A stretch of DNA of 64,000 nt, from assembly GCA_963738405.1 (NCBI GenBank), contig CAVTWJ010000014.1, positions 192,001-256,000 of the forward strand. The letters run 5' to 3'. Shown here piece by piece: positions 34,033 to 61,234 of this stretch (its first letter is position 1; the number at the start of each line of letters is the position of its first letter). The notes beneath the pieces were generated by a model, which was not told the origin of the DNA, made no database searches, and worked only from the letters and a program-made list of their open reading frames with translations. This DNA comes from a candidate division FCPU426 bacterium (lineage in GTDB: Bacteria; Oederibacteriota; Muellerivitia; Muellerivitales; Muellerivitaceae). The position numbers and the translations under genes are program-made.

Positions 34033-34109
34033 GCGCCTGTGGCTCAATTGGATAGAGCGACTGACTACGGATCAGTAGGTTGGGGGTTCAAGTCCCTCCA
34101 GGCGCACCA
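34033..34109 (+). tRNA. tRNA-Arg(ACG)
   Basis: Cloverleaf; anticodon arm ACTGA-CT-ACG-GA-TCAGT; GGTTCAAG T-loop; encoded CCA. Confidence 0.97.
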
Positions 34110-34118
34110 TTTTAAAAT

Positions 34119-34240
34119 GACTTGAACCCTGGGAAAGGGTTCGGGAAAACGGAAGTTTTACCGTGTGTTTCGACGGGGTACGTAGGGGGAGTTTCCCCTA
34201 CGAGCGCTTTGCGCGGTTCAAGCCCCTCCTCATCACACCA
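34119..34240 (+). repeat. tRNA-3'-associated structured mini-element, copy A
   Basis: Starts with the reverse complement of the tRNA-Arg T-arm, has three internal hairpins, ends in a degenerate tRNA 3'-end copy with CCA. Confidence 0.7.
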
Positions 34241-34261
34241 TCTTTCTTTAGAAGAATATAT

Positions 34262-34735
34262 TTGAGGTGTCCGCTGTTCCCCTCCGATGAACCCTTCATG
34301 CGGGAAGCCCTGAAAGAAGCTGCCAAGGCCGCCCAAAAGGGAGAGGTGCCCGTGGGCGCGGTGGTGGTATATGAAGGAAAGATTATCGGCCGGGGCCATA
34401 ACCTCACCGAGAAAAAACAAAGCGCCCTGACCCACGCCGAAATGGGAGCCCTCAGCCGGGCAACCCAGAAGATTAAAAGCTGGCGGTTGGCGGACTGCGA
34501 CCTTTACGTGACGCTGGAGCCCTGCACCATGTGCGCGGGGGCGATTGTTTTATCCCGAGTCCGGCGGCTGGTTTTCGGGGCGATGGACCCCAAGGCGGGA
34601 GCGGTCGTGAGCACGGCCCAGGTGATGGACAACGGGAAATTGAACCACCGGGTTCAAATCTCGGATGGTATATTAAAAGAAGAATGTTCGCGGGTCCTCA
34701 CGGACTTCTTTAGGACTTTGCGAAACAAGAAGTGA
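34262..34735 (+). CDS. tadA: tRNA-specific adenosine deaminase (start uncertain, 34262 or 34298)
   Basis: GEVPVGAV, HAE, LYVTLEPCTMCAGA, FGAMDPKAGA. Confidence 0.95.
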   Translation: MRCPLFPSDEPFMREALKEAAKAAQKGEVPVGAVVVYEGKIIGRGHNLTEKKQSALTHAEMGALSRATQKIKSWRLADCDLYVTLEPCTMCAGAIVLSRVRRLVFGAMDPKAGAVVSTAQVMDNGKLNHRVQISDGILKEECSRVLTDFFRTLRNKK

Positions 34736-34742
34736 CGGACGT

Positions 34743-34818
34743 GGGGATGTAGCTCAGCTGGGAGAGCGTCTCGTTCGCAACGAGAAGGTCGGCGGTTCGA
34801 TCCCGCTCATCTCCACCA
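34743..34818 (+). tRNA. tRNA-Ala(CGC)
   Basis: G3-U70 pair in the acceptor stem; anticodon arm TCTCG-TT-CGC-AA-CGAGA; CCA. Confidence 0.96.
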
Positions 34819-34929
34819 ATTTTTAGAAGTAATACTTTTGAGCAGTTGAACAATAGAACAGTTGAAGAGTGGATGAAGGCAACTGCGGTCAACTGCTCTA
34901 CTGGTCAATTGCTCGTTTTTTTGAGTGCT

Positions 34930-35020
34930 GGAGAGATGGCCGAGCGGTCGAAGGCGCACGCCTGGAAAGCGTGTAGGCTCCAAAAGGGTCTCAAGGGTTC
35001 GAATCCCTTTCTCTCCGCCA
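34930..35020 (+). tRNA. tRNA-Ser(GGA)
   Basis: Anticodon arm CACGC-CT-GGA-AA-GCGTG, long variable arm, CCA. Confidence 0.96.
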
Positions 35021-35101
35021 TATTTTGCGTTTTTTTCCTCTTCTTCCCTCTACCTCAAGCATGGAAAGTTCGCGGACTTTTCGATTAAGATAGTCAACCC
35101 A

Positions 35102-35220
35102 CCTCGGCGTGGAAGTCGGGTCCTATACGGCGGGCGGGCCCCAACTCCGCTAGGTCCGGAAGGAAGCAACGGTAAGGTCAGTGCCCGGGTGTTGTGGGTA
35201 ACCTGGCTTCCACGACGAGG
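35102..35220 (+). ncRNA. ffs: Small bacterial SRP RNA (4.5S type)
   Basis: Domain IV AGGTCCGGAAGGAAGCAAC inside a long hairpin; usual position between tadA and dnaX. Confidence 0.9.
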
Positions 35221-35317
35221 CGGGCCGCATCTTAAGATGCGAAGTTTAAAGCGAGAAGTTCGGAGCGATAAGTTTTAACCCCTAACCGCTAATTCCTAAC
35301 TCTTCCGAAGGAAATTT

Positions 35318-37060
35318 ATGCCCCAAGTCATGGCCCTCAAATGGCGTCCCCAGGTCTTTGCCGACATGGTGGGCCAGGAGCACGTCACCCGAACCCTTCA
35401 AAACTCCATCAAGGCCGACCGGGTAGCCCACGCCTACATCTTCGCCGGCCCCCGCGGCGTCGGCAAAACCACCACCGCCCGCATCTTCGCCAAGGCCCTC
35501 AACTGCCGAAATCTTAAAGACGCCGAACCCTGCAACGCCTGCGACCTCTGCGAGGAAGTCAACCAAGGCTCGGCCATGGACGTCATCGAGATCGACGCGG
35601 CCTCCTTCAACCGAGTGGAAGATATCCGCAACCTGCAGGAACAGGTGGGCACCTACCCCGCCAAGGCCCGCTACAAGGTTTACATCTTTGACGAAGCGCA
35701 CCGCATCACCAAACAGGGTTTCGACGCCTTCTTGAAGACTCTGGAAGAACCTCCCGCCCACGTCATCTTTATCCTCGCCTCAACTGAAATTCACCAATTC
35801 CCCCCCACTGTTCAGTCGCGCTGCCAGCGTTTCGAGTTCCGCTCCATGGGGATGGACACGCTGGTCAAACAGCTCCGCCGGATCAGCGACGCTGAAAAAA
35901 TAGAGATCGACGACAAGGCCCTCTACCAGGTGGCCCGGGCCGCCGGGGGTTCCATGCGCGACGGCCAAAGGACCCTGGACCAAGTCGTGGCCTTCTCCGG
36001 TAAAAAAGTGACCTTGGACGATCTTCGGATGGTTTTGGGGTCGATTGAGGGGGAAGTTTTCCTTAAATTGGCCGAAGCGGCCCTGGCCCAAGACGCCCAG
36101 GCCGGGCTGGCGGTGGTTCGATCAGTCATGGAAAGCGGCAAAGATTTAGAACATTTCCATTCCGGGCTCTTGGAAACTTTCCGCCACCTAGCCGTTTCCA
36201 AAACCTATCCTCAGGCCTCCGGTGAGCTGATCCCCCTTCCGGCGGAAGAAATAACCCGGTTAACGGAATTGGCCTCCAGGATGAGCGAAGCCCAAATCCT
36301 TTCCTCTTTGCGCCTCCTGTTAGAGCAGGAATGGGCGGTTCGTCACTCCGGCAGCCCCATGGTCGTCGTGGAAACCCTGGTGCTGGAACTGTGCCGTTTG
36401 GGTTCCTTGATTTCCGTGGGCGATCTTTTAAAGCAGGCTGAAACGGGTTCCGTTAAGATCCCGTCCGCTCCCGCTCGCCCCACAGCCCCAGCCGTAAACC
36501 CCGCGGTGGCGGTAATGTCGGAGGCGCCAAAACCCTACACCGCTCCTGTTGCCCCCGCCCCTGTTTCGGTTTCCGAGGGGGAACCCGCCTTAGCCGTGGA
36601 TGAGATCGAAGACGCTTCTGAAACAAGCTCCAACCCCGAATTCGCCAAGATCAAAAACCGTTGGCGCGAGATTCTTGAAAAGGTCGCGGCCCAAAAGAAA
36701 GCGCTGGAAGCCGTACTGCGCGATACCCGCCCCAAAAAGCTGGACGAGGGCACCCTGGTTCTTTCCTGCCTGGGCCCCTTTCACCAGGAACAAATGACCA
36801 AACCGGAAAACAAAATACTGGTCGAGAAAATACTGGAAGAAGAGGTGGGCCGGCCCATCCATCTGGTTCCCGTGCTCTCAGGCCCCGCCCCAACGGGCAC
36901 CGCCGCCAAACCGAGCGGTCCCAGGTCTCCCAAGCCCCTTTCAAGCCCCAAAATCGACGAAAAAGAACTGGAAAAAGAAGAACCGATCGTGGCCGCCGCG
37001 TTGAAAATGTTCGGTGGAAAAATTGTCGAGGTCAAACGCAATCCGCCGCCGGCGAGATAA
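35318..37060 (+). CDS. dnaX: DNA polymerase III subunit gamma/tau
   Basis: KWRPQ, GPRGVGKTT, Zn cysteines, EIDAAS, DEAH, SRC. Confidence 0.97.
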   Translation: MPQVMALKWRPQVFADMVGQEHVTRTLQNSIKADRVAHAYIFAGPRGVGKTTTARIFAKALNCRNLKDAEPCNACDLCEEVNQGSAMDVIEIDAASFNRVEDIRNLQEQVGTYPAKARYKVYIFDEAHRITKQGFDAFLKTLEEPPAHVIFILASTEIHQFPPTVQSRCQRFEFRSMGMDTLVKQLRRISDAEKIEIDDKALYQVARAAGGSMRDGQRTLDQVVAFSGKKVTLDDLRMVLGSIEGEVFLKLAEAALAQDAQAGLAVVRSVMESGKDLEHFHSGLLETFRHLAVSKTYPQASGELIPLPAEEITRLTELASRMSEAQILSSLRLLLEQEWAVRHSGSPMVVVETLVLELCRLGSLISVGDLLKQAETGSVKIPSAPARPTAPAVNPAVAVMSEAPKPYTAPVAPAPVSVSEGEPALAVDEIEDASETSSNPEFAKIKNRWREILEKVAAQKKALEAVLRDTRPKKLDEGTLVLSCLGPFHQEQMTKPENKILVEKILEEEVGRPIHLVPVLSGPAPTGTAAKPSGPRSPKPLSSPKIDEKELEKEEPIVAAALKMFGGKIVEVKRNPPPAR

Positions 37061-37129
37061 GCGTTTTTCCGGTTAATTATCGCCCAGAAAAGGTTTATAA
37101 AAGATTCATCCCAAACGATGGAGGCGCTC

Positions 37130-37441
37130 ATGCCGGATATGCTCGACCTTTTCCGCCAAGCCCAGTTGATGAAAGAAAAAATGGCCCAGTTCCAGAAAGA
37201 AATGGAAACCCAGACCTTCGACGGGTCGGCGGGGGGAAACGCGGTGACGGTCACGGTCAACGGCAAACATGAGGTTCAAAACATCTCTATCAACCCCCGG
37301 GTCATCGCCACCGGCGACAAAGAACAGCTGGAAGATCTTGTAAAAACCGCGCTCAATAACGCGGGCCGCCAGGTGAATGAAAAAATGAAGGAAGAAGTCA
37401 ACCGAATGACCGGCGGATTAGGCATCCCCGGCCTTTTATAA
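37130..37441 (+). CDS. ybaB: YbaB/EbfC nucleoid-associated protein
   Basis: GSAGGNAVTVTVNG, LEDLV..ALNNA; located between dnaX and recR. Confidence 0.93.
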   Translation: MPDMLDLFRQAQLMKEKMAQFQKEMETQTFDGSAGGNAVTVTVNGKHEVQNISINPRVIATGDKEQLEDLVKTALNNAGRQVNEKMKEEVNRMTGGLGIPGLL

Positions 37442-37459
37442 AACTCAGCAGCCCACAAC

Positions 37460-38062
37460 ATGCCCGACTATCCCCCGTCCCTCGAAAAACTGCTTCACGA
37501 ACTGGAAAAACTTCCGGGGGTCGGTCCCCGTTCGGCCCAACGCCTGGCCTTTCACCTGTTGAAGCAACCCGTCGAAAACTCCCAGCTTCTGGCCAAGGCC
37601 CTGGTTGAAGCCCGAACCAAACTTCACCCCTGCCGGGATTGCCACAACCTGACTGAAGAAACCCTTTGCCGAATCTGCCTTGCTCCCGGAAGGGACAAGC
37701 AATTGTTGTTGGTGGTGGAAGATCCCAGCGACGTCATCGCCTTTGAGCGCACCCACGAGTTTCACGGCCTTTACCATGTCTTGGGCGGTAACCTTTCCCC
37801 ATTGGAAGGGCGGGGCCCGGACGATCTGAAACTGGATTCACTGGTGGAAAGGGTGAAAACAAACAGTGTGTTCAAAGAAGTCATTGTCGCGACCGACCCC
37901 ACGGTGGAAGGGGATTCCACGGCCCTTTATATTCAACATCTATTAAAAGGAAACCCCATCAAGGTCACCCGCCTCGCCCGGGGCCTGCCCTCGGGCGGGG
38001 ATGTGGAGTATGCGGACGAATCGACACTTCTAAAGGCCCTGGAAGGGCGCCGGGAATTATAA
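37460..38062 (+). CDS. recR: Recombination mediator RecR
   Basis: LPGVGPRSAQRLA, C4 zinc finger, YHVLGG, Toprim ATDPTVEGD. Confidence 0.97.
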   Translation: MPDYPPSLEKLLHELEKLPGVGPRSAQRLAFHLLKQPVENSQLLAKALVEARTKLHPCRDCHNLTEETLCRICLAPGRDKQLLLVVEDPSDVIAFERTHEFHGLYHVLGGNLSPLEGRGPDDLKLDSLVERVKTNSVFKEVIVATDPTVEGDSTALYIQHLLKGNPIKVTRLARGLPSGGDVEYADESTLLKALEGRREL

Positions 38063-38164
38063 ATGGTTGATTCAGTACCATCTTCCTTAAACGACTTATC
38101 GGAAGATGGTGCGAATCTGCGCTCCTGCAAATACTCAAAGGTCGGCGTGAATTATAAGAAGGGC

Positions 38165-39244
38165 ATGCGAAGCCATCCGCAAATCCTTGTCTGGGTCCTA
38201 ACCTTGCTCAACCTGATTCCCATTTCCCTACAAGCCGAAGAAACCATTCCGCCCGATAGCCCCCTCATCCGTTATTCCGGCCGGGTCATCGTGAATAAAA
38301 CCCGCGGGGCCATTTTCGATTGGCCGGGGGTATCGATTCACGCGGGTTTCAAGGGAACGGAGGCGGGTTTTCTGATCGACGGAGCCAAAAATAATCTGGA
38401 AGTTAAAGTGGACGGAGAAGCCGTCACCACCTGGACCTGCGACCCCTCCCCCCAAACCTACTGGATCAAAGGCCTTTCCGAGGGAAACCACCAGGTGGAA
38501 ATCGTCAAACGAACCGAGGGATTGTTCGGACCCGTCATCTTCCAAGGAATGGTGCTTGATTCAAAGAGCGAGGCGCAAAAACCTTTTCCCCCCCCGGAGC
38601 ATCGAATCGAGTTCATCGGGGATTCCTGGATTTGCGGGTACGGGGACGAAGCCACCACCCTTCACTGCAAGGACCTGCGCCCCTACGAAAACGCAGACCG
38701 GGCCTTTGGGGCCCTAACCGCCCGCGCGTTGGGGGCGGAATACCACCTCACCGCCTTCTCAGGCCGGGGGGTGGTGCGCAATTACGCTGAAAAAGGCACT
38801 TCTTCCCAAGAGCCTTTCGGCGTCCTGTTTAACCGCACGCTGGTGGAGGCCCGGGATTGCCCTTGGGATTTTTCGCAGTGGGTCCCGGACGCAGTGGTGA
38901 TCCATTTGGGATTGAACGATTTTTCCTCCACGCCCCATCCCGCACCGCAGGATTTCATTGAAGGCTATCGTAAACTTCTTCAACAGGTTCGAGCGGCTTA
39001 TCCCCAGGCTTGGATTATCTGCTTTGCCACCACCGGCTGGCCCTTTTTCAGCCCCTTGGTGAAGGAAGCCTCGGACAGCTTCAACCGCGGAGGAGATCCC
39101 AAGGTGATGTTCGCCGGGTATCCGAGTGTTCCTTTATCGGAACTCGGCTGCGATTATCACCCCCAGGTCGTCGCCCACCAGCGGCTGGCGGATATCTTGG
39201 CGCCGGTTATTCGGAAGACTCTCGGCTGGGGTCCATTACAATAG
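38165..39244 (+). CDS. Secreted SGNH/GDSL esterase, CE2-like (acetylxylan esterase)
   Basis: FDWPG N-terminal domain, RIEFIGDSWICGYG, HLGLND, DYHP. Confidence 0.85.
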   Translation: MRSHPQILVWVLTLLNLIPISLQAEETIPPDSPLIRYSGRVIVNKTRGAIFDWPGVSIHAGFKGTEAGFLIDGAKNNLEVKVDGEAVTTWTCDPSPQTYWIKGLSEGNHQVEIVKRTEGLFGPVIFQGMVLDSKSEAQKPFPPPEHRIEFIGDSWICGYGDEATTLHCKDLRPYENADRAFGALTARALGAEYHLTAFSGRGVVRNYAEKGTSSQEPFGVLFNRTLVEARDCPWDFSQWVPDAVVIHLGLNDFSSTPHPAPQDFIEGYRKLLQQVRAAYPQAWIICFATTGWPFFSPLVKEASDSFNRGGDPKVMFAGYPSVPLSELGCDYHPQVVAHQRLADILAPVIRKTLGWGPLQ

Positions 39245-39277
39245 ACTGCGCTGTTCAATCCTTTTTTAGGAGTTCCC

Positions 39278-40312
39278 GTGAAAGTTCTCATCCTTGGCGG
39301 AACCGGCCTCATTTCAACCGCCATTGTGAACCAGCTCGTCGAGCGGGGGGATGAAGTGACGGTTTATAACCGGGGTGTCACGCCTTGGCGCATCCCCAAA
39401 ACCGTTAAGGAGATCAAGGGCAACCGCTGGGACACCCCCGCCTTCGAGGCCCAGATGAAAGATGTTTCTTTTGACGCGGTTATCGACATGGTGGCTTTCG
39501 CGCCCGAGAACGCCGAGTCGGTTCTAAGGGCCTTCACCGGCAAGGTCAAACAAATCGTGGTTTGTTCTACTGTTTGCGTTTACGGCGGGCCCATGACCAA
39601 GCTTCCCGCCACGGATGACGAACCCCACCGGTCTGTCACCGATTACGGACGCAACAAATCCAAAATTGAGAATATCCTTCTTTCCGCCAACGGTAAGAAC
39701 GGGCTCCACACCACCGTCATCCGTCCTTCTTATACAACAGGGGAAGGGGCCGAATATCCGGGATTACTTTTTGACAACAGCCTTCCCAACCGCCTCAAAG
39801 AGGGCCTGCCGGTCATCGTGATGGATGAGGGAAAAGCGGCCTGGGCGGTCGCGCATGTGAGCGACGTGGGCCGGGCCTTCGTGAATTCACTCTTGAACCC
39901 CCAAGCCTATGGCCAGGCCTACCATGCCACCAGCGACGAGCACACTACTTGGGATGGGGTTTATGAGGCCATGGCCAAAGCCGTAGGAGGAAAATTCAAC
40001 CCGGTTCACATCCCCACCGATTGGCTCTATTCCAACGCTCCTCGCCGAAGCCTCGGGGTGAAATTTATTTATCAGTACCCTTCGATCTTCGATAACTCTA
40101 AAGCCAAAAAGGATTTGGGTTTCAAGACCACCGTTCCTTTGGTTGAAACTTGGCGGCGCCAATTTGAATGGATGGAACAAAACGGAAAAACCAAGAAGAC
40201 ATCCGAAGATACTTTCGAAGACTTGATGATCGAAGCCTATCAAAAGGGCGTGAAACCCGCGCTACCCGAGGGGATGGACTTTAATCCTTGGGGGAACGGA
40301 ACGACCAACTAG
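39278..40312 (+). CDS. NAD-dependent epimerase/dehydratase family protein
   Basis: ILGGTGLIS Rossmann motif, YGRNK. Confidence 0.9.
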   Translation: MKVLILGGTGLISTAIVNQLVERGDEVTVYNRGVTPWRIPKTVKEIKGNRWDTPAFEAQMKDVSFDAVIDMVAFAPENAESVLRAFTGKVKQIVVCSTVCVYGGPMTKLPATDDEPHRSVTDYGRNKSKIENILLSANGKNGLHTTVIRPSYTTGEGAEYPGLLFDNSLPNRLKEGLPVIVMDEGKAAWAVAHVSDVGRAFVNSLLNPQAYGQAYHATSDEHTTWDGVYEAMAKAVGGKFNPVHIPTDWLYSNAPRRSLGVKFIYQYPSIFDNSKAKKDLGFKTTVPLVETWRRQFEWMEQNGKTKKTSEDTFEDLMIEAYQKGVKPALPEGMDFNPWGNGTTN

Positions 40313-40493
40313 TGGCCGTTCCGTTGGTGCCGTTCACTTTATTGTTGGATATCAAAACGGCAAAACGAGACCATGAACTAAGGTAAACTTGACTTTTGGA
40401 AGGGGTGAATTAGACTATCCCTCCCCCGAAAACCCTTGGTTTTTGGGGTTTTATTTGCATCTACAACTTAAAACACCCGTGTTTCGGGTAAAT

Positions 40494-40568
40494 TCCCCGG
40501 TAGCTCAATGGTGGAGCATGCGACTGTTAATCGCAGGGTTGTTGGTTCGAGTCCAACCCGGGGAGCCA
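40494..40568 (+). tRNA. tRNA-Asn(GTT)
   Basis: Anticodon arm TGCGA-CT-GTT-AA-TCGCA; CCA; upstream TTGACT-N16-TAGACT at 40389-40416. Confidence 0.97.
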
Positions 40569-40575
40569 TAAACGT

Positions 40576-40615
40576 AAAGGGCCCATTCCAAGAGGAATCG
40601 GGCCCTTTTCTTTTT
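40576..40615 (+). terminator. Intrinsic terminator after tRNA-Asn
   Basis: AAAGGGCCC..GGGCCCTTTT followed by a T-run. Confidence 0.8.
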
Positions 40616-40620
40616 GTGTT

Positions 40621-40725
40621 TCCCCGGGTTAAGAGGGTATGGGGGATGATAGGCCCCCATGTCGTTCAAAGGGGTCTACAGGGGTCTTTTCCCCTGTAAG
40701 CGCGAATGCGCACCCGGGTGAGCCA
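40621..40725 (+). repeat. tRNA-3'-associated structured mini-element, copy B
   Basis: TCCCCGGGTT (reverse complement of tRNA-Asn 40555-40564), three hairpins, then ACCCGGGTGAGCCA (tRNA 3'-end copy). Confidence 0.7.
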
Positions 40726-40774
40726 TTTTAATAGAGCCGTCCGCCATAAAGCGGATGGCCTTTTTTTGTATTTA

Positions 40775-40860
40775 CCGGGTTGGACGAGAACCAAAAAGGG
40801 GTATGGGGCGGAACGGAGGTTCTGCCCCGGTCTTGAACTGGGGGTATACAGGGGGGTATA
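40775..40860 (+). repeat. tRNA-3'-associated structured mini-element, copy C (3'-truncated)
   Basis: CCGGGTTGGACGAGAACCAA (17/20 to the reverse complement of the tRNA-Asn T-arm), hairpin 1, GGGGTATACAGGGG. Confidence 0.6.
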
Positions 40861-40915
40861 TTGCGCCACTTTTTCCGTTATACTTCACCTGTTTTCCACT
40901 GTGGGAGGAACCCCA

Positions 40916-41110
40916 ATGACGCCCATTACCTTAGTCAATAACCCAGACCTCTATTCCGGCCAATACGTGGCCGTGAAATCATTCACAGACCGTGAAGTCA
41001 TCAGCCACGGTGAAATCCCCATGAATGTTGTCAATGAGGCAAAAGAGAAGGGCTTTCAAGAGCCCGTACTATTATTCATCCCTGAAAAAGGCATGCTGAA
41101 CGTTTATTAA
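40916..41110 (+). CDS. Small DUF5678-like protein
   Basis: YSGQYVAV..VISHG..AKEKGFQEPVLLFIP; GGAGG RBS. Confidence 0.65.
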   Translation: MTPITLVNNPDLYSGQYVAVKSFTDREVISHGEIPMNVVNEAKEKGFQEPVLLFIPEKGMLNVY

Positions 41111-41517
41111 TGCCCATTCAAAATATTCCATTTCTAAACGACCACCCCTACCTAGCGATCAGGATCATTAATCCGCATACGGGCTTACAGCAAAAATTAT
41201 TCGCCTTGGTGGATACCGGGGCGGATGAATGCACGATTCCCGCCTTGTACGCCCCTTTACTGGGGCACAATTTAACGCTCGGCAATCCTAAAAACGCCGC
41301 CACTGCGGGCGGCCCGGCCACGGGTTTCGGCCATACCACCACCATCGAAATTTACGACCACCGAACAAGCGCCCTTCTTTTCACCATCAAGGATGTCATT
41401 GTCGATTACATGCCGGGCCTTCACATACCTTTGTTGGGGGTTAAGCATTTTCTTGAGAATTTCGAACTGAATATCCATTACCCCAACAAGGTATTTTCGA
41501 TTAAATGGCCCCAATAA
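41110..41517 (+). CDS. Retropepsin-like (clan AA) aspartyl protease
   Basis: ALVDTGADEC catalytic motif, TAGG flap, PLLGVKHFL. Confidence 0.85.
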   Translation: MPIQNIPFLNDHPYLAIRIINPHTGLQQKLFALVDTGADECTIPALYAPLLGHNLTLGNPKNAATAGGPATGFGHTTTIEIYDHRTSALLFTIKDVIVDYMPGLHIPLLGVKHFLENFELNIHYPNKVFSIKWPQ

Positions 41518-42177: not shown

Positions 42178-42274
42178 AACCGGCTTAGGTTCATAAGGGG
42201 CCTGGCTGGCCCCTTAATTCAGATCGGTTTTTGGGTGTCCCAGGGAATTGGGCCTAAAATGGAAAATGGTGGCC

Positions 42275-43536
42275 TGGACTTCCCCCGATTTAGTGGACAA
42301 TCTAGTTTAGTGTAGTTGTTCCCTCAAACTCCACCGGACTTTTGTAGCCCAAGGTGGAATGCAATCTCTTCCGGTTGTAAAAAATCTCTATATATTCAAA
42401 CAACTTAGCTTTCGCCTCTTCCTTCGTGTTGAACCGCACGGTTCTCACCAACTCTGCTTTCAAGGTTTTGAAGAAGCTTTCGACCACCGCGTTGTCGTAG
42501 CAACTTCCCCTTTGGTTCATCGAGCTTTGGATCCGATGCTCTTTCAGTTCATTAATAAAAGCTCTCGAAGAATACTGACTGCCTTGATCCGAATGATGAA
42601 TCTTCGGCGTTTGATCACCTCTTTCTTGAATCGCCATCTTCAAGGCATCGATGGCCAATTCCTCCCGCAGATGGGGTTGCATTGACCAACCAATGATTCG
42701 CCGAGAAAAAAGATCCATCACGACCGCCAGGTACAACCAACCAGCCCCTGTACGAAACTGGGTAATATCAGATGCCCAGATTCTATTGGGCTTCTTAATA
42801 TCGAACTTTTGTTTCACCAGGTTCTTGGTTCTTATCCTCCCATGATTCGTCAACGTGCAACGTCGGTAGTAGTACTGCCTCAAGGCCCGAATTCCAGCCA
42901 TTTTCATCAATCTAGCGATTCGATTGCGCCCCCAACCAAAACCTTCTTTCTTCAGCCCCGCGTGAATTCTCGGGGATCCATACGCCTTTCTCGATATCAA
43001 ATAGACTTCTCGAATTTCCTGTAAAACCAATATGTTTTCTTTGTCTCTCTTCGACGGTTCTCGATTCAACCATGCGTAATAGCCACTACGAGAGACCCCA
43101 AGAACACGACACAACATCGTTATGGAGTATTGGGTTTGTTGTTCTCGGATGCATTCGAATTTTTGGCTTCTTCGGCCGCGAAGAAGACTAGAGTTTTTTT
43201 TAGTATGTCGCGCTCATCCGTGAGCCGTTTGACTTCCTTGCGCAGACGGATGATCTCAGCATTTTCGGGGCTTTTGACACTCCGGCCAGGCTTTCCCGGA
43301 AAAGCTTTGGAACCTTCTTTATGGATTTCATCACGCCAACGGTAAAGAAAAGCGGGATTGATATTCAGATCGCGGGCCACTTGAGTAACTGGCTTACCCG
43401 ACTCATTCGAGAGTCGAACCGCTTCCAGCTTAAACTCAAGGCTATATTTCCTATTGATTCGATGCGCCATGACAGACACCCCCGTAAGCTGTATTCTACA
43501 CTCATCTCAGGTGTCCATTTTTTCGGGGGAAGTCCA
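42275..43536 (-). mobile_element. IS3-family insertion sequence, copy 1 (1262 bp), 3-bp TSD GCC
   Basis: Terminal IRs TGGACTTCCCCCGA..TGGACA; orfA 43120-43479, orfB 42302-43117; GCC at 42272-42274 and 43537-43539. Confidence 0.95.
42302..43479 (-). CDS. IS3 transposase OrfAB (probable -1 frameshift at A8 run)
   Basis: OrfA HTH; OrfB WASDIT, HHSDQGSQY, DNAVVESFF. Confidence 0.92.
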
Positions 43537-43569
43537 GCCTGACCCCTTTTTCATTTTTTCTTTCCTGAA

Positions 43570-44892
43570 TTATTTGGGAGTGGTTGTTATTTGAAAATAT
43601 TCATCATCAAATGTTTTACCCATAATCGAATGCGAATCATCGTCCCAACTTGCGCCGTTAATAGTTTTAGGGAAATGCAATATTTGTTTAATTTTCAAAT
43701 CTTCGCCAATTCTCATTAACATCGCTTGACCAGATCGATCCTTAATATCATGAGAATTGAATTGATCGATGACCAGCCAAACATCGGGAGAATCTTTTGG
43801 TGTAACTGCATAATAGATACCGCATGATTTACCATTTATAGGCGGAGGTAAAAATCTCTTATTCGATTCAGCGGAATAAAATTTTTTAACTGTTTTCAGC
43901 GTAGATAAGCTGATAATTTTCGTAGTGACATCTTCCGAATAATGAAATGGATCTTTTTTACTTGAGAGCTTCGTTTGAGCCAAAGAACCTTCGACTAAAT
44001 CGGAACAATTATCACCATTGATACCATATGATTTGGTTATTCCTGTGATGGTATTCACCAAATAACAAATTCCACGATTACAGCCAATAATTGTTCCAGT
44101 ACTATTTATAATAGGTGTACCAGATCCGATTTCAGGATATTTTTGTTTTATCGAAAATCCCGGCAGATTATATAAAACCATTTCATTAGCTTCTTGATGC
44201 AACATAGTATTGCCATCTAATGATTCAAAAACATCATCAGTACCCCACACCATATCTTTATCTATATTAATAATTTGAATCGGATTTTCTAAATCAACAA
44301 TTCCTTGTTGCCTTTTTTTAAGGACAATCGCAAAACGTCCCTGTCCAAGAAATTTAGAAAATATCCACCCATTACTTAAAGTAATCTTTTTCATCTCAGG
44401 GATTTTATAGATGCCGTTAAACGAAACAGCCGCACTGCTCTCTGAAGGTCCTCTCACATTAAGGTAATTACCATTTTTGGATATTTCTAATCCATTTTCT
44501 AAAGAAGCTTGAAAGATAATCCTATTAGACTTTCCGTCATAAAGAATGTTATCGGCTAACCAATAATTTCCAGAATCATCAGAACTCAAATTAGGATAAT
44601 TCCCGTTTTTAACGTTTTTTTGAATTAGACTGTTTAATCTATTAAACTTCCACGGCTTAGAATTCTCACGCAACGGAAGAGATTTATCTCTTCGAAATTT
44701 ATTGCAAATTTCCTCATCGATAGAAATTATGGTGGAGGACGGGATCTCTTCTATTGAAGAGGCTTTTATGTCTTCATCCTGTCCAAAAGTCGCGGAAGTA
44801 GGAATGGGCGTTTGAGAATAAACAGGTGTTATTAATAAGGAAATTAAACTAATAAGAGGGACGCAACCGGATAATTTTCTCAAGTTAAACAC
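43570..44892 (-). CDS. Hypothetical secreted protein, possibly beta-propeller-like, low GC
   Basis: Signal-peptide-like N-terminus; beta-rich repeats; visibly AT-rich DNA. Confidence 0.6.
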   Translation of the reverse strand: MFNLRKLSGCVPLISLISLLITPVYSQTPIPTSATFGQDEDIKASSIEEIPSSTIISIDEEICNKFRRDKSLPLRENSKPWKFNRLNSLIQKNVKNGNYPNLSSDDSGNYWLADNILYDGKSNRIIFQASLENGLEISKNGNYLNVRGPSESSAAVSFNGIYKIPEMKKITLSNGWIFSKFLGQGRFAIVLKKRQQGIVDLENPIQIINIDKDMVWGTDDVFESLDGNTMLHQEANEMVLYNLPGFSIKQKYPEIGSGTPIINSTGTIIGCNRGICYLVNTITGITKSYGINGDNCSDLVEGSLAQTKLSSKKDPFHYSEDVTTKIISLSTLKTVKKFYSAESNKRFLPPPINGKSCGIYYAVTPKDSPDVWLVIDQFNSHDIKDRSGQAMLMRIGEDLKIKQILHFPKTINGASWDDDSHSIMGKTFDDEYFQITTTPK

Positions 44893-45175
44893 TTTTCATA
44901 TTCTCCGTCACATTTAACTTACTGAGTAACTGTTTCCTTTTTCATCACAAACGGAGAATCAGCAGTTCGTGTTAAAGATAAACAAATCATGATCAATATT
45001 TACATTATTCATTCTGACCTGCCCCAATTCTTTGTACCACTTCCTATCTCACACCATAGGCCCAGTTTGTTGAACCCATTAGTGGAATAGGTTTCATCTT
45101 GGGTTCTAAAATCCAAGTTTCTGGTGCTGGTGGCAGTTGGCCCAACGAACTGTGCGGAGAACAAAGGGGCCAAGC

Positions 45176-46437
45176 TGGACTTCCCCCGAAAAAATGGACA
45201 CCTGAGATGAGTGTAGAATACAGCTTACGGGGGTGTCTGTCATGGCGCATCGAATCAATAGGAAATATAGCCTTGAGTTTAAGCTGGAAGCGGTTCGACT
45301 CTCGAATGAGTCGGGTAAGCCAGTTACTCAAGTGGCCCGCGATCTGAATATCAATCCCGCTTTTCTTTACCGTTGGCGTGATGAAATCCATAAAGAAGGT
45401 TCCAAAGCTTTTCCGGGAAAGCCTGGCCGGAGTGTCAAAAGCCCCGAAAATGCTGAGATCATCCGTCTGCGCAAGGAAGTCAAACGGCTCACGGATGAGC
45501 GCGACATACTAAAAAAAACTCTAGTCTTCTTCGCGGCCGAAGAAGCCAAAAATTCGAATGCATCCGAGAACAACAAACCCAATACTCCATAACGATGTTG
45601 TGTCGTGTTCTTGGGGTCTCTCGTAGTGGCTATTACGCATGGTTGAATCGAGAACCGTCGAAGAGAGACAAAGAAAACATATTGGTTTTACAGGAAATTC
45701 GAGAAGTCTATTTGATATCGAGAAAGGCGTATGGATCCCCGAGAATTCACGCGGGGCTGAAGAAAGAAGGTTTTGGTTGGGGGCGCAATCGAATCGCTAG
45801 ATTGATGAAAATGGCTGGAATTCGGGCCTTGAGGCAGTACTACTACCGACGTTGCACGTTGACGAATCATGGGAGGATAAGAACCAAGAACCTGGTGAAA
45901 CAAAAGTTCGATATTAAGAAGCCCAATAGAATCTGGGCATCTGATATTACCCAGTTTCGTACAGGGGCTGGTTGGTTGTACCTGGCGGTCGTGATGGATC
46001 TTTTTTCTCGGCGAATCATTGGTTGGTCAATGCAACCCCATCTGCGGGAGGAATTGGCCATCGATGCCTTGAAGATGGCGATTCAAGAAAGAGGTGATCA
46101 AACGCCGAAGATTCATCATTCGGATCAAGGCAGTCAGTATTCTTCGAGAGCTTTTATTAATGAACTGAAAGAGCATCGGATCCAAAGCTCGATGAACCAA
46201 AGGGGAAGTTGCTACGACAACGCGGTGGTCGAAAGCTTCTTCAAAACCTTGAAAGCAGAGTTGGTGAGAACCGTGCGGTTCAACACGAAGGAAGAGGCGA
46301 AAGCTAAGTTGTTTGAATATATAGAGATTTTTTACAACCGGAAGAGATTGCATTCCACCTTGGGCTACAAAAGTCCGGTGGAGTTTGAGGGAACAACTAC
46401 ACTAAACTAGATTGTCCACTAAATCGGGGGAAGTCCA
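45176..46437 (+). mobile_element. IS3-family insertion sequence, copy 2 (1262 bp, inverted relative to copy 1), 3-bp TSD AGC
   Basis: Same IRs and identical translated ORFs; AGC at 45173-45175 and 46438-46440. Confidence 0.95.
45233..46410 (+). CDS. IS3 transposase OrfAB (slippery A8 at 45511-45518)
   Basis: Translations identical to copy 1. Confidence 0.92.
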
Positions 46438-46825
46438 AGCCTACATTTTACACCTTAGAAGCCTCTTGGCGAATGTCCGGTCTTTGGCCGTGATCCGATA
46501 AAGAAGCAAGGTGCCTGGCCTACATTCAAAACTTTAGGTTTTATCCCCGCCCCTCAATTCGTGCACAAATGCCTTCATTGGCATTTGCATAACCAAACCT
46601 TACCCAATAACTTGCGGTTATTGGGTAGATACTCTCGAAACCTTACAAACCTCCGGTCCCTTCAGGCCCTAGCGCACATCCACAATCACCGTCACGGGCA
46701 CGGTGGAAACCACCTCCCCCTGGTAATGCAGGTCACTCTGGGTGATCAACAACTCTTTTACGGAACTTTCACCCCAATGTTTTGTATGACATTGGGGTAG
46801 TCAAGACAAGTGCCGTAGCTGGTGG

Positions 46826-59886: not shown

Positions 59887-61234
59887 TTGAAAATCTTGAT
59901 CATCGACGATGAAGAATCGCTGGTTAAAATCCTCTCCAAAATTCTAAAACAGGAAGGCCACGAGGTCTTTCCCGCCTATACCGCTTCCGAAGGCATAGAA
60001 AAACATAAGATCCTCCAACCGGACATGCTGCTTCTGGACATCCATCTGCCGGACCAAACGGGCATGGAGGTTCTGGAGCAGTTGAATAGGGCTTATAACG
60101 CCAGTTCGGTCGTGATCATCACCGGGGACGGAAATGTCAACTCAGCCATCCAAGCCATGAAGCTCGGCGCCGAGGATTACCTGGAAAAACCCATTGATCC
60201 CCAAAAACTGAAGCTCGTCACCAAGCGCATCGCGGAAAAAAGGGGGCTCCTCAACCAGGTGAACCTGCTTAAGAGCATGCACCTGGAAATGTACCAGAAA
60301 GATTATCTTTTCCTGTCCCATCCCGAAATGCAGAAGCTTTACGATTCCATCGCCCAAGTGGCGAAACAGGACCAGCTGTCGGTTTTAATCCTGGGCGAAA
60401 CGGGAACCGGCAAGGAACATGTGGCCCGCTTGATCCACCGGATGTCCCAAAGGGCCGGGAAGCCCTTTATGGAAATCCATTGCGGGGCCCTTCCGGAAAC
60501 CATCCTGGAATCGGAGCTGTTCGGGTACGAGCCCGGGGCCTTTACCGACGCGCGCAAGCAAAAACCCGGCCTTTTCGAGGTGGCCCAGGGGGGAAGCCTA
60601 TTCTTGGACGAGATCGGGGAGCTCGACGCCCGCGGTTCAAACCAAACTCTTGAAGGTTCTGGAGCAAAAATCCTCCCGCCGTCTGGGAGGCGTCAAGGAA
60701 ATACCTTTTGACGTGAGGATCATCGCGGCCACCCACCGCAACCTGGAGAAAGAGGTTGAAAAGGGGCATTTCCGGGCGGACCTATTCTACCGGCTCAACG
60801 TGATTCCCCTCGAAATTCCGCCGCTGCGCCACCGCCCGGAGGATGTTTCCCAATTGGCCCAATTTTTTCTCCAAGAATCCTGCAAAAACTTCGGCAAAAA
60901 CCTTTCCCTCTTGGGGGAAGATATGGTTAAAGCCCTGCAAGTCTATTCCTGGCCGGGCAATATCAGGGAACTGAAGCACGTCATCGAGCGCATGGTGGTC
61001 ATGGCCAAGGGGGGCAGCCTGACCTTGAAGGACTTGCCGAAGGATATTCGGGAGGCCCAATCCGTTCCCGCGCCCGGAAAAATCGTCCTCAACCGAAAAG
61101 AGTCGGAAATCGAGAACATCCGCCGGGCCTTGACCCAAACCAACGGCAACCAGTCCAAGGCCGCCGCCCTTTTGGGCGTCACCCGCAAAACCCTTTTTAA
61201 CAAGATCAAACGCTACGGCTTGAAAACCTCTTAA
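59887..61234 (+). pseudogene. NtrC-type sigma-54 response regulator (REC-AAA+-HTH) split by a one-base insertion near 60624
   Basis: REC domain, [23 protein letters not shown]; next frame continues [33 protein letters not shown]. Confidence 0.8.

Follow-up and report, generated by a model that had tools for sequence, protein, structure and literature searches.

Fragments of tRNA genes mark the ends of integrated genetic elements (PMC9897764). Decayed elements that retain both attL and attR, the cis-mobilizable elements (CIMEs), are described as stacked by accretion at tRNA genes (PMC5704250), and in tandem islands at ssrA a conserved element motif lies directly upstream of each direct repeat (PMC3146451). 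A related arrangement of much smaller dimensions is found in a 64-kb window from a candidate division FCPU426 bacterium (contig CAVTWJ010000014.1, positions 192,001 to 256,000; the window is the whole stretch of DNA analyzed, numbered from its first nucleotide). Three copies of a short structured element occur there behind tRNA genes, all in one orientation: the Arg copy (34119-34240) behind tRNA-Arg, and the Asn1 (40621-40725) and Asn2 (40775-40866) copies in tandem behind tRNA-Asn, the two host loci being 6.4 kb apart. The element units, of 105-156 bp, contain no real gene, and the complete copies are rich in hairpins. We tentatively read the copies, at somewhat less than even probability, as units of a family of tRNA-integrating elements that carry neither cargo nor integrase, with two of the units stacked at tRNA-Asn, in the manner of miniature cis-mobilizable elements.

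The likeness to CIMEs and to tandem accretion lies in the bounding of the unit by the 3' end of the target gene and a direct repeat (PMC5704250; PMC3146451), in the absence of integration and transfer genes, in tandem stacking, and in a conserved element sequence directly upstream of the repeat. A flanking direct repeat is present at Arg (14 of 15 positions plus CACCA) and at Asn1 (13 of 14), Asn2 has no downstream repeat, and no integrase or transfer gene lies inside the units. Known CIMEs, however, measure kilobases and carry cargo, whereas the present units of about 105-156 bp carry none, include an inverted tRNA complement and a three-hairpin core, and have no known parent element or recombinase. 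As with the attR-type tRNA fragments at island ends (PMC9897764), a partial CCA-bearing 3' copy lies downstream of an intact gene; unlike them, the present fragment lies only ~105-150 nt from the gene, its acceptor part is a misfit at Arg, and the two loci repeat different parts of the tRNA.

A search of the literature, which was not exhaustive, found no description of such an element. In integron attC sites and in the CTX-phage attP(+), one strand folds into a stem that imitates a double-stranded target site. The imperfect inverted repeats of the present elements could fold likewise, and they too could keep structure while varying in sequence; attC boxes, however, compared by eye only, misfit some copies, and neither an integron integrase nor an Xer-type site came to light. 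Bacterial MITEs (miniature transposable elements with inverted repeats) and repetitive extragenic palindromic (REP) and REPIN repeats are short, non-coding, palindromic and intergenic. The same can be said of the elements described here, but their ends are target-derived and locus-specific, their known copies are all tRNA-linked and in one orientation, and no partner transposase was found. For integration in tRNA genes, Williams is said to have distinguished sublocation classes in 2002.

Arms and neighboring tRNA genes

Four tRNA genes lie on the forward strand of the window, as do all features described in this section (ARAGORN and Rfam, 59.6-69.3 bits). Both host genes are intact and encode their CCA ends, tRNA-Arg(ACG) at 34033-34109 (69.3 bits) and tRNA-Asn(GTT) at 40494-40568 (68.5 bits). 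All three copies share one layout: a 5' arm that is the reverse complement of part of the tRNA, an AGGGT-type motif, hairpin 1, a spacer, GGGGT(A/C), and hairpin 2, of which Asn2 has the 5' strand only. The two complete copies, Arg and Asn1, further carry a single A, a third hairpin of the form GCGC-N3-4-GCGC, and a CCA-ended arm resembling a tRNA 3' end. An earlier note on this DNA, made from the letters alone, had proposed these copies, and sequence and alignment agree on all three, on their coordinates and on the shared layout; the order of parts stands as proposed, while the spacer, given there as 10-11 nt, is actually 10-12 nt long.

The 5' arms are complementary to the neighboring tRNA at 11 of 11 positions in Arg, 10 of 10 in Asn1 and 20 of 23 in Asn2, and recomputation confirmed that GACTTGAACCC and TCCCCGGGTT are the exact reverse complements of 34084-34094 and 40555-40564, respectively. 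The 3' arms are direct copies, matching at 14 of 15 positions in Arg and at 13 of 14 aligned positions, with an extra T, in Asn1. When arms were compared with their own tRNA, 0-3 of 2000 shuffles reached the score, whereas four cross-controls of an arm against the other tRNA gave 39, 592, 184 and 658 of 2000. The arms are specific to the local tRNA, save for the acceptor part at Arg. The repeated part of the tRNA differs by locus, being the T-loop region at Arg and the acceptor strand at Asn1. With the upstream, functional tRNA copy the inverted arm forms a perfect match of 10-11 bp, against 7-8 uninterrupted bp with the downstream copy, and this better fit is expected if a tRNA end and its inverted arm travel together and the displaced end decays.

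At the Arg locus, a short A/T trailer (34110-34118) without a terminator leads from the tRNA to the 5' arm (34119-34129), which complements tRNA-Arg positions 52-62 (1 of 2000 shuffles); the Arg arms have their template in the T-arm region at 34084-34094. The linker (34130-34142), with AGGGT at 34136-34140, pairs with the 5' arm in the minimum-energy fold. Hairpin 1 (34143-34162), with an 8-bp stem containing one mismatch and a GGAA loop, is followed by a spacer of 12 nt and GGGGTA (34163-34180, from sequence and alignment), by hairpin 2 (34181-34202), with a perfect 8-bp stem and a 6-nt loop, and by the A and hairpin 3, GCGC-TTT-GCGC (34203-34214), which abuts the 3' arm. The first 15 nt of this arm (34215-34240), which ends in CACCA, correspond to tRNA-Arg positions 53-67. 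Its acceptor part cannot pair with the 5' acceptor strand of tRNA-Arg and resembles the 3' end of tRNA-Ala(CGC) (34743-34818; ARAGORN/Rfam), 570 nt downstream (arm against tRNA-Ala, 3 of 2000 shuffles). The tracking of the neighboring tRNA that the earlier note had claimed thus holds at Arg for 15 nt of the 3' arm and fails for its Ala-like acceptor part.

The resemblance extends beyond the arm, into 21-35 nt after its CCA: the flank at 34241-34275, upstream of tadA, is similar to the tRNA-Ala flank at 34819-34853 (0 of 2000 shuffles). The two flanks share, in one order, TTTAGAAG, AATA and TTTGAG, and both contain a TAnnTTTG-like word. The likeness may stem from duplication, from gene conversion or from a signal common to both.

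At the Asn locus, the order is tRNA-Asn, terminator 1, Asn1, a trailer with terminator 2, Asn2 and a gene for a DUF5678 protein. Terminator 1 (40579-40616), in which a T tract follows a G+C-rich hairpin bulged at one base, separates tRNA-Asn from Asn1; it was recognized from sequence and fold, having been missed by a simple terminator scan. The Asn1 5' arm (40621-40630) complements tRNA-Asn positions 62-71 (0 of 2000 shuffles). Folding and alignment place behind it the core (40631-40711), made up of the AGGGT linker (40631-40639), hairpin 1 (40640-40659), the spacer with GGGGTC (40660-40676), hairpin 2 (40677-40698), the single A (40699) and the GCGC hairpin 3 (40700-40711). The 3' arm (40712-40725) corresponds to tRNA-Asn positions 62-75 plus the extra T and ends in GAGCCA (2 of 2000 shuffles).

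Between Asn1 and Asn2 lie a trailer and terminator 2 (40726-40768; stem at 40736-40759, then a T tract), bearing out the proposal that the unit is iterated at tRNA-Asn with a second terminator. The Asn2 5' arm (40775-40797) is complementary to 40539-40561, which is tRNA-Asn positions 46-68 (0 of 2000 shuffles). The decayed Asn2 core (40798-40866) keeps hairpin 1 intact at 40805-40828, while hairpin 2 has lost its 3' strand and the GCGC hairpin its 5' strand to a 15-nt internal gap; there is no recognizable 3' arm and no downstream tRNA-like end. Asn2 had been called a truncated copy; it is indeed incomplete, though by an internal gap and a missing arm rather than by simple shortening.

The two inverted arms at this locus overlap as pieces of a single 26-nt stretch complementary to tRNA-Asn positions 46-71. 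They share a 7-bp CCGGGTT (40624-40630 and 40775-40781), which fits insertion into an arm and two homologous arms with different deletions equally well; a nested insertion with a 7-bp target duplication is thus not rejected, though not needed. Asn1 and Asn2 have the letters of hairpin 2 and linker variants in common and differ strongly in hairpin 1 and in their terminators. A promoter-like pair, TTGAAC (40833-40838) and TATATT (40857-40862) with 18 nt between them, overlaps Asn2. The TATATT, a -10-like element, lies at the Asn2 deletion junction and is followed by a GGGAGGA ribosome-binding site and an ATG at 40916; a promoter for the next gene, as predicted from sequence, may have been born from the dead copy.

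Structure and conservation of the core

In the alignment of the three cores, the linker motif has the consensus A(A/G)GGGT(A/T), and the 10-12-nt spacer ahead of GGGGT(A/C) contains TT(C/G)(G/A)A(C/A). Hairpin 1 varies in sequence and in length, with stems of 8 bp including one mismatch in Arg, 6-8 bp in Asn1 and 10 bp in Asn2, yet stays paired in all copies, as had been noticed before. The inner pairs of hairpin 2 read AGGGG/CCCCT, and its outer pairs either CGT/ACG or TAC/GTA; three pairs of this hairpin are changed on both sides, as is one pair of hairpin 1. Across the complete structure, 92.9% of cells form pairs; with partners slid, the share is 44-59%. The covariation score was reached by 29 of 500 column shuffles, and with three sequences its significance is unsupported and the covariation only suggestive. 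The covarying stems of the earlier note are therefore upheld as two-sided changes in hairpin 2, and not as a significant signal. Folding z-scores were -3.2 for Arg and -4.5 for Asn1 (0 of 200 shuffles as good) and -1.9 for Asn2 (7 of 200). Unlike terminators 1 and 2, none of hairpins 1-3 has the form of an intrinsic terminator, that of a G+C-rich hairpin with a T tract behind it.

A covariance model of the three cores, a check that the earlier note had suggested, was run with filters off on all 64 kb and gave matches at 97.3, 87.2 (Asn1) and 46.9 (Asn2) bits, the next best being a 14.7-bit match inside an open reading frame (ORF). All three copies found by the model lie less than 300 nt downstream of a tRNA and on the tRNA strand. 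Cut from repeat to repeat, the units measure about 130, 154 and 150 bp and can be aligned over their whole length, on a plan of CCA, A/T trailer, (terminator, T tract, TGTRTTT), inverted arm and core.

Proposed units of a tRNA-integrating element family

An intact gene followed by element sequence, by a displaced 3' fragment with its flank and by a tandem repeat is an arrangement known as the mark of site-specific integration at tRNA genes and of the accretion of decayed elements (PMC9897764; PMC5704250; PMC3146451), and we read the copies as such units. As direct repeats, the tRNA-like ends reproduce the 3' part of the tRNA, and what follows them is as at genuine tRNA gene ends: the A/T trailer and terminator 2 behind Asn1 parallel those of tRNA-Asn and terminator 1, and the flank behind the Arg end resembles that of tRNA-Ala and is thus of a real tRNA type. 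Mobile DNA on the downstream side of Asn2, in the form of two IS3 copies, also speaks for this reading. From these features we infer an origin by recombination, a direction of events and, possibly, continuing mobility.

One unit, of about 130-156 bp, would begin with a replacement tRNA 3' segment and trailer, plus an intrinsic terminator at Asn, and would continue with the inverted complement of the same tRNA segment, the conserved three-hairpin core with its conserved linkers (AGGGT..., ...TTCRAM GGGGTM, A), and the left portion of a further tRNA-like repeat. A recombinase encoded elsewhere would cross the tRNA-like segment of the unit with the tRNA gene, which would keep a working 3' end, now supplied by the unit; the older 3' end, with its own flank, would be displaced downstream and become the 3' arm. 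At tRNA-Asn, a second event would have stacked Asn1 onto Asn2, which would then have decayed, its remnants resembling a promoter for the next gene. Among the interpretations offered in the earlier note, which as a whole are partly supported, an att-site origin fits best, given the direct repeats, tRNA-type flanks and stacking. That one core carries arms for two tRNAs is in keeping with a retargetable homing element, but neither a recombinase nor an empty site, relatives or further loci were found.

Several points weigh against integration as the origin. A Pfam screen of 54 of the 55 window ORFs of at least 80 amino acids (leaving out 34925-35278, which overlaps tRNA-Ser and the signal recognition particle (SRP) RNA) found no tyrosine or serine recombinase, HUH or reverse-transcriptase domain, and hence no site-specific recombinase. 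In this screen 14 ORFs had no Pfam match at E 1e-5, and a looser re-search gave weak matches for six and still none for eight; an enzyme of unrecognized type among the window ORFs is possible. The former statement that the window holds no integrase accordingly holds for site-specific recombinases, although genes for IS3-family DDE transposases are present. No empty site, excised form or relative in another genome is known, and none of the loci given by a strict core-pattern scan of one genome for each of 185,579 species, with the source genome outside the set, has this arrangement.

Further difficulties lie in the elements themselves. The Arg 3' arm is chimeric and cannot simply be a displaced original end; its acceptor mismatch obliges one to assume either that tRNA-Ala later converted it or that its history was a different one. 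The repetition of different tRNA parts at the two loci would be unusual if a single recombinase family were at work; at 130-156 bp, a double-stranded circle would be very small and awkward; and classical tyrosine-recombinase att sites make no use of an inverted arm. The conserved hairpins with compensatory changes point to a single-stranded RNA or DNA form, which an att scar does not require, and the known copies number three at two loci. 

The rival explanation that survives best, one that we regard as unlikely, though worth keeping in view, is a structured RNA in tRNA 3' trailers, the arms of which would form the closing stem of a four-way junction built from hairpins 1-3 and conserved linker bases. 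Such an RNA would act in cis or as a small RNA, for instance as a module for processing or stability, or as a decoy that draws off a factor recognizing tRNA 3' ends. In its favor, the minimum free energy fold of Asn1 is exactly this closed four-way junction (-55.8 kcal/mol, z=-4.5). In both complete copies hairpin 3 sits on the 3' arm, and so on the closing stem, without a linker; the three compensatory pairs of hairpin 2 and the variable yet paired hairpin 1 are in keeping with an RNA, as are G-U wobbles in hairpin 1 of Asn1 and Asn2, which pair on the + strand only (a reading of the sequence by eye). The tRNA strand carries all copies, and tRNA-Arg, element and tadA follow one another without an intervening terminator. 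At Asn, however, the strong terminator 1 precedes Asn1 and no promoter-like site was found between them, while at Arg the closing stem costs 7.8 kcal/mol (-44.4 against -52.2), the 5' arm preferring a local hairpin. The earlier suggestion of a cis-acting RNA that pairs with the pre-tRNA is disfavored at tRNA-Asn, since the intrinsic terminator stands between the tRNA and the inverted arm; at Arg, the local hairpin is what the inverted arm prefers. Asn2, moreover, has lost half of two hairpins, no Rfam family matches, the covariation score of the three sequences lies within the reach of shuffling (29 of 500), a closing stem copied from the neighboring tRNA is not evidently needed, and the strict scan of the 185,579 species gave no recognizable member.

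It is improbable that the copies are immobile, functionless by-products of local events, in which slippage, template switching or gene conversion would have produced partial duplications of tRNA 3' ends round a lineage-specific intergenic repeat, the Asn copies being an old tandem duplication. Asn1 and Asn2 are adjacent and have hairpin 2 letters and linker variants in common, the inverted arm of Asn1 can be read as an Asn2-type arm minus 13 nt, with CCGGGTT then not needing to be a target duplication, and the chimeric Arg 3' arm suggests gene conversion between neighboring tRNA genes. Local duplication alone is nevertheless insufficient for one core behind two tRNAs 6.4 kb apart with its arms re-matched; hairpin 1 and both terminators differ strongly between Asn1 and Asn2, and compensatory change preserves pairing.

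A long shot is that the units are minimal integrating cassettes (about 130-156 nt) that act as folded single strands, the paired arms mimicking a stretch of the target tRNA gene and so offering a recombinase partner the cassette's own version of the attachment site. A change of arms would then re-aim the same three-hairpin core to another tRNA gene, which would survive because each cassette brings along a spare tRNA end and in some cases a terminator as well. Such programmable, gene-less units would be analogs of integron attC sites or of the CTX-phage hairpin that take tRNA genes as their targets. The conservation of the hairpins and the pairing of the arm with the unit's own tRNA segment suggest a folded single-strand stage, which is the boldest of the readings and purely what we infer.

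Least credible of all is a classical MITE- or REP-like element moved by a transposase such as that of the nearby IS3 copies, or by a HUH enzyme, and lying beside tRNA genes by chance: the units are small, gene-less and hairpin-rich with inverted ends, the window holds IS3 transposase genes, and Candidatus Poriferihabitaceae genomes have intergenic repeats of several hairpins whose 3' half is loosely similar, but the inverted ends are locus-specific and tRNA-derived rather than element-derived, no terminal inverted repeat is shared between the loci (the arms differ, and the cross-controls were not significant), the IS3 ends are unlike the arms in a comparison made by eye only, no HUH transposase domain occurs in the screened ORFs, the covariance model finds no copy away from tRNAs in 64 kb, and the sponge-symbiont repeats score 13-27 bits against 16-19 for chance, with fixed flanks and no tRNA within 3 kb.

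If the copies are indeed units of tRNA-integrating elements, they would show how far such an element can shrink, down to att-type sequence plus a structured core, and one core would be combinable with arms for different tRNA genes. This would bear on shifts of integration specificity among tRNA genes and on the build-up of tRNA-fragment arrays that mislead tRNA annotation. Decayed copies would be raw material for promoters, as with Asn2 upstream of the next gene, and small structured DNA or RNA modules could perhaps be re-aimed as recombination sites. If the copies are only scars, they would be a tidy, ordinary case of tRNA-linked genome plasticity in an uncultured lineage.

Searches for relatives and known families

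At the Rfam gathering threshold no family, with tRNA, tmRNA, T-box, Y-RNA-like and self-cleaving ribozymes among those covered, has a match that overlaps the elements. When E was relaxed to 10, the sole overlapping matches were to Qrr (22.1 bits, with a cutoff of 50) and to Corona_FSE (18.5 bits, with a cutoff of 46); the earlier note had held that a match to an Rfam class would tell against a new family, and none appeared at either setting. A blastn search in 'distant' mode, of the Arg copy against phages and of the Asn region against plasmids, gave no match at E up to 1. The strict core-pattern scan returned 30 loci, mostly G+C-rich chance matches and none with the present arrangement (0 of 30), though with a looser pattern more might have been found. 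No tRNA lies within 3 kb of 27 of these loci; at two (L009 and L017) the pattern is upstream of a tRNA-Asp on the other strand, and at one (L028), where the 5' half of the core is missing, it lies on the strand opposite a 93-nt tRNA-Pro call, 7 nt past its 3' end.

Two Candidatus Poriferihabitaceae genomes (OZ243042.1, with L005, L012 and L014; CBDFMY01, with L008, L024 and L027) contain intergenic repeats of ~130-150 nt, which consist of four or five stacked G+C-rich hairpins and are loosely similar in their 3' half. At L014, three repeat copies occur within 1.1 kb and on both strands. These repeats have fixed flanks, no tRNA within 3 kb and no Rfam match. Homology to the present elements is unsupported, as full-length alignment scored 13-27 bits, against 16-19 bits for chance pattern matches.

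Other candidate identities were rejected. A decayed tRNA as the source of the core (four tRNAs, both strands, 24 tests) gave a best z of 3.4 (7 of 500 shuffles) and otherwise z<2. The topology of a tRNA-like cloverleaf with acceptor mimicry fits Asn1 only and fails at Arg, whose arms derive from the T arm and whose closing stem is disfavored. The inverted arm is not a tRNA primer site of a retro-element, as the arms end before the discriminator and CCA.

Genomic neighborhood

The Arg copy sits between tRNA-Arg(ACG) and tadA, with no terminator within that stretch. tRNA-Arg(ACG) is the substrate of the A34 deaminase TadA, and its gene lies directly 5' of tadA (34033-34735). The ORF at 34163-34735 shows TadA homology (NCBIfam equivalog) from residue 41 on, has a likely start near 34288, and overlaps the Arg copy solely via an upstream GTG. 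Because no terminator lies between them, tRNA-Arg and tadA, substrate and enzyme, may share one transcript that runs through the Arg element. Downstream of tadA follow, in order, tRNA-Ala, tRNA-Ser(GGA) (34930-35020, + strand; ARAGORN/Rfam), the SRP RNA, dnaX, ybaB and recR. The 111-nt spacer between tRNA-Ala and tRNA-Ser (34819-34929) contains a long imperfect hairpin (~34839-34915), repeated AGTTGAA words and then a T tract; it has only weak Rfam matches of the microRNA-precursor type and is unrelated to the elements by the covariance model.

Behind the Asn copies, the DUF5678 protein gene (40916-41110; 64 amino acids, E 3e-8) overlaps, stop to start, a 135-amino-acid ORF with a weak likeness to clan-AA aspartic proteases (TIGR03698, E 7.6e-5, below cutoff). 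Together, 40916-41517 is a two-gene module at the edge of a mobile region. Two IS3-family DDE transposase gene pairs lie 1.5-5.5 kb downstream of the Asn copies, in inverted IS3 copies at 42254-43549 and 45163-46458 that are 1296 nt each and 99% identical, with 41-42-nt terminal inverted repeats. They bracket 1613 nt with a 440-amino-acid ORF (43570-44892) that has no Pfam or NCBIfam match, and the two copies with the enclosed ORF look like a composite transposon.

Elsewhere in the window, a sigma-54 activator with receiver, AAA+ and HTH_8 domains (59887-61234) is split over two overlapping ORFs, the break in Sigma54_activat at profile position 110/114 indicating a frameshift or sequencing error. 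A large cluster at 3082-26985 encodes secreted polysaccharide-degrading proteins, with PA14/CBM9, GH53 and GH28, PL4, CBM3, GH127 and weak Por_Secre_tail matches, together with an extracytoplasmic function (ECF) sigma factor and an AraC regulator, and hints at a plant-polymer degrader of FCB type or similar.

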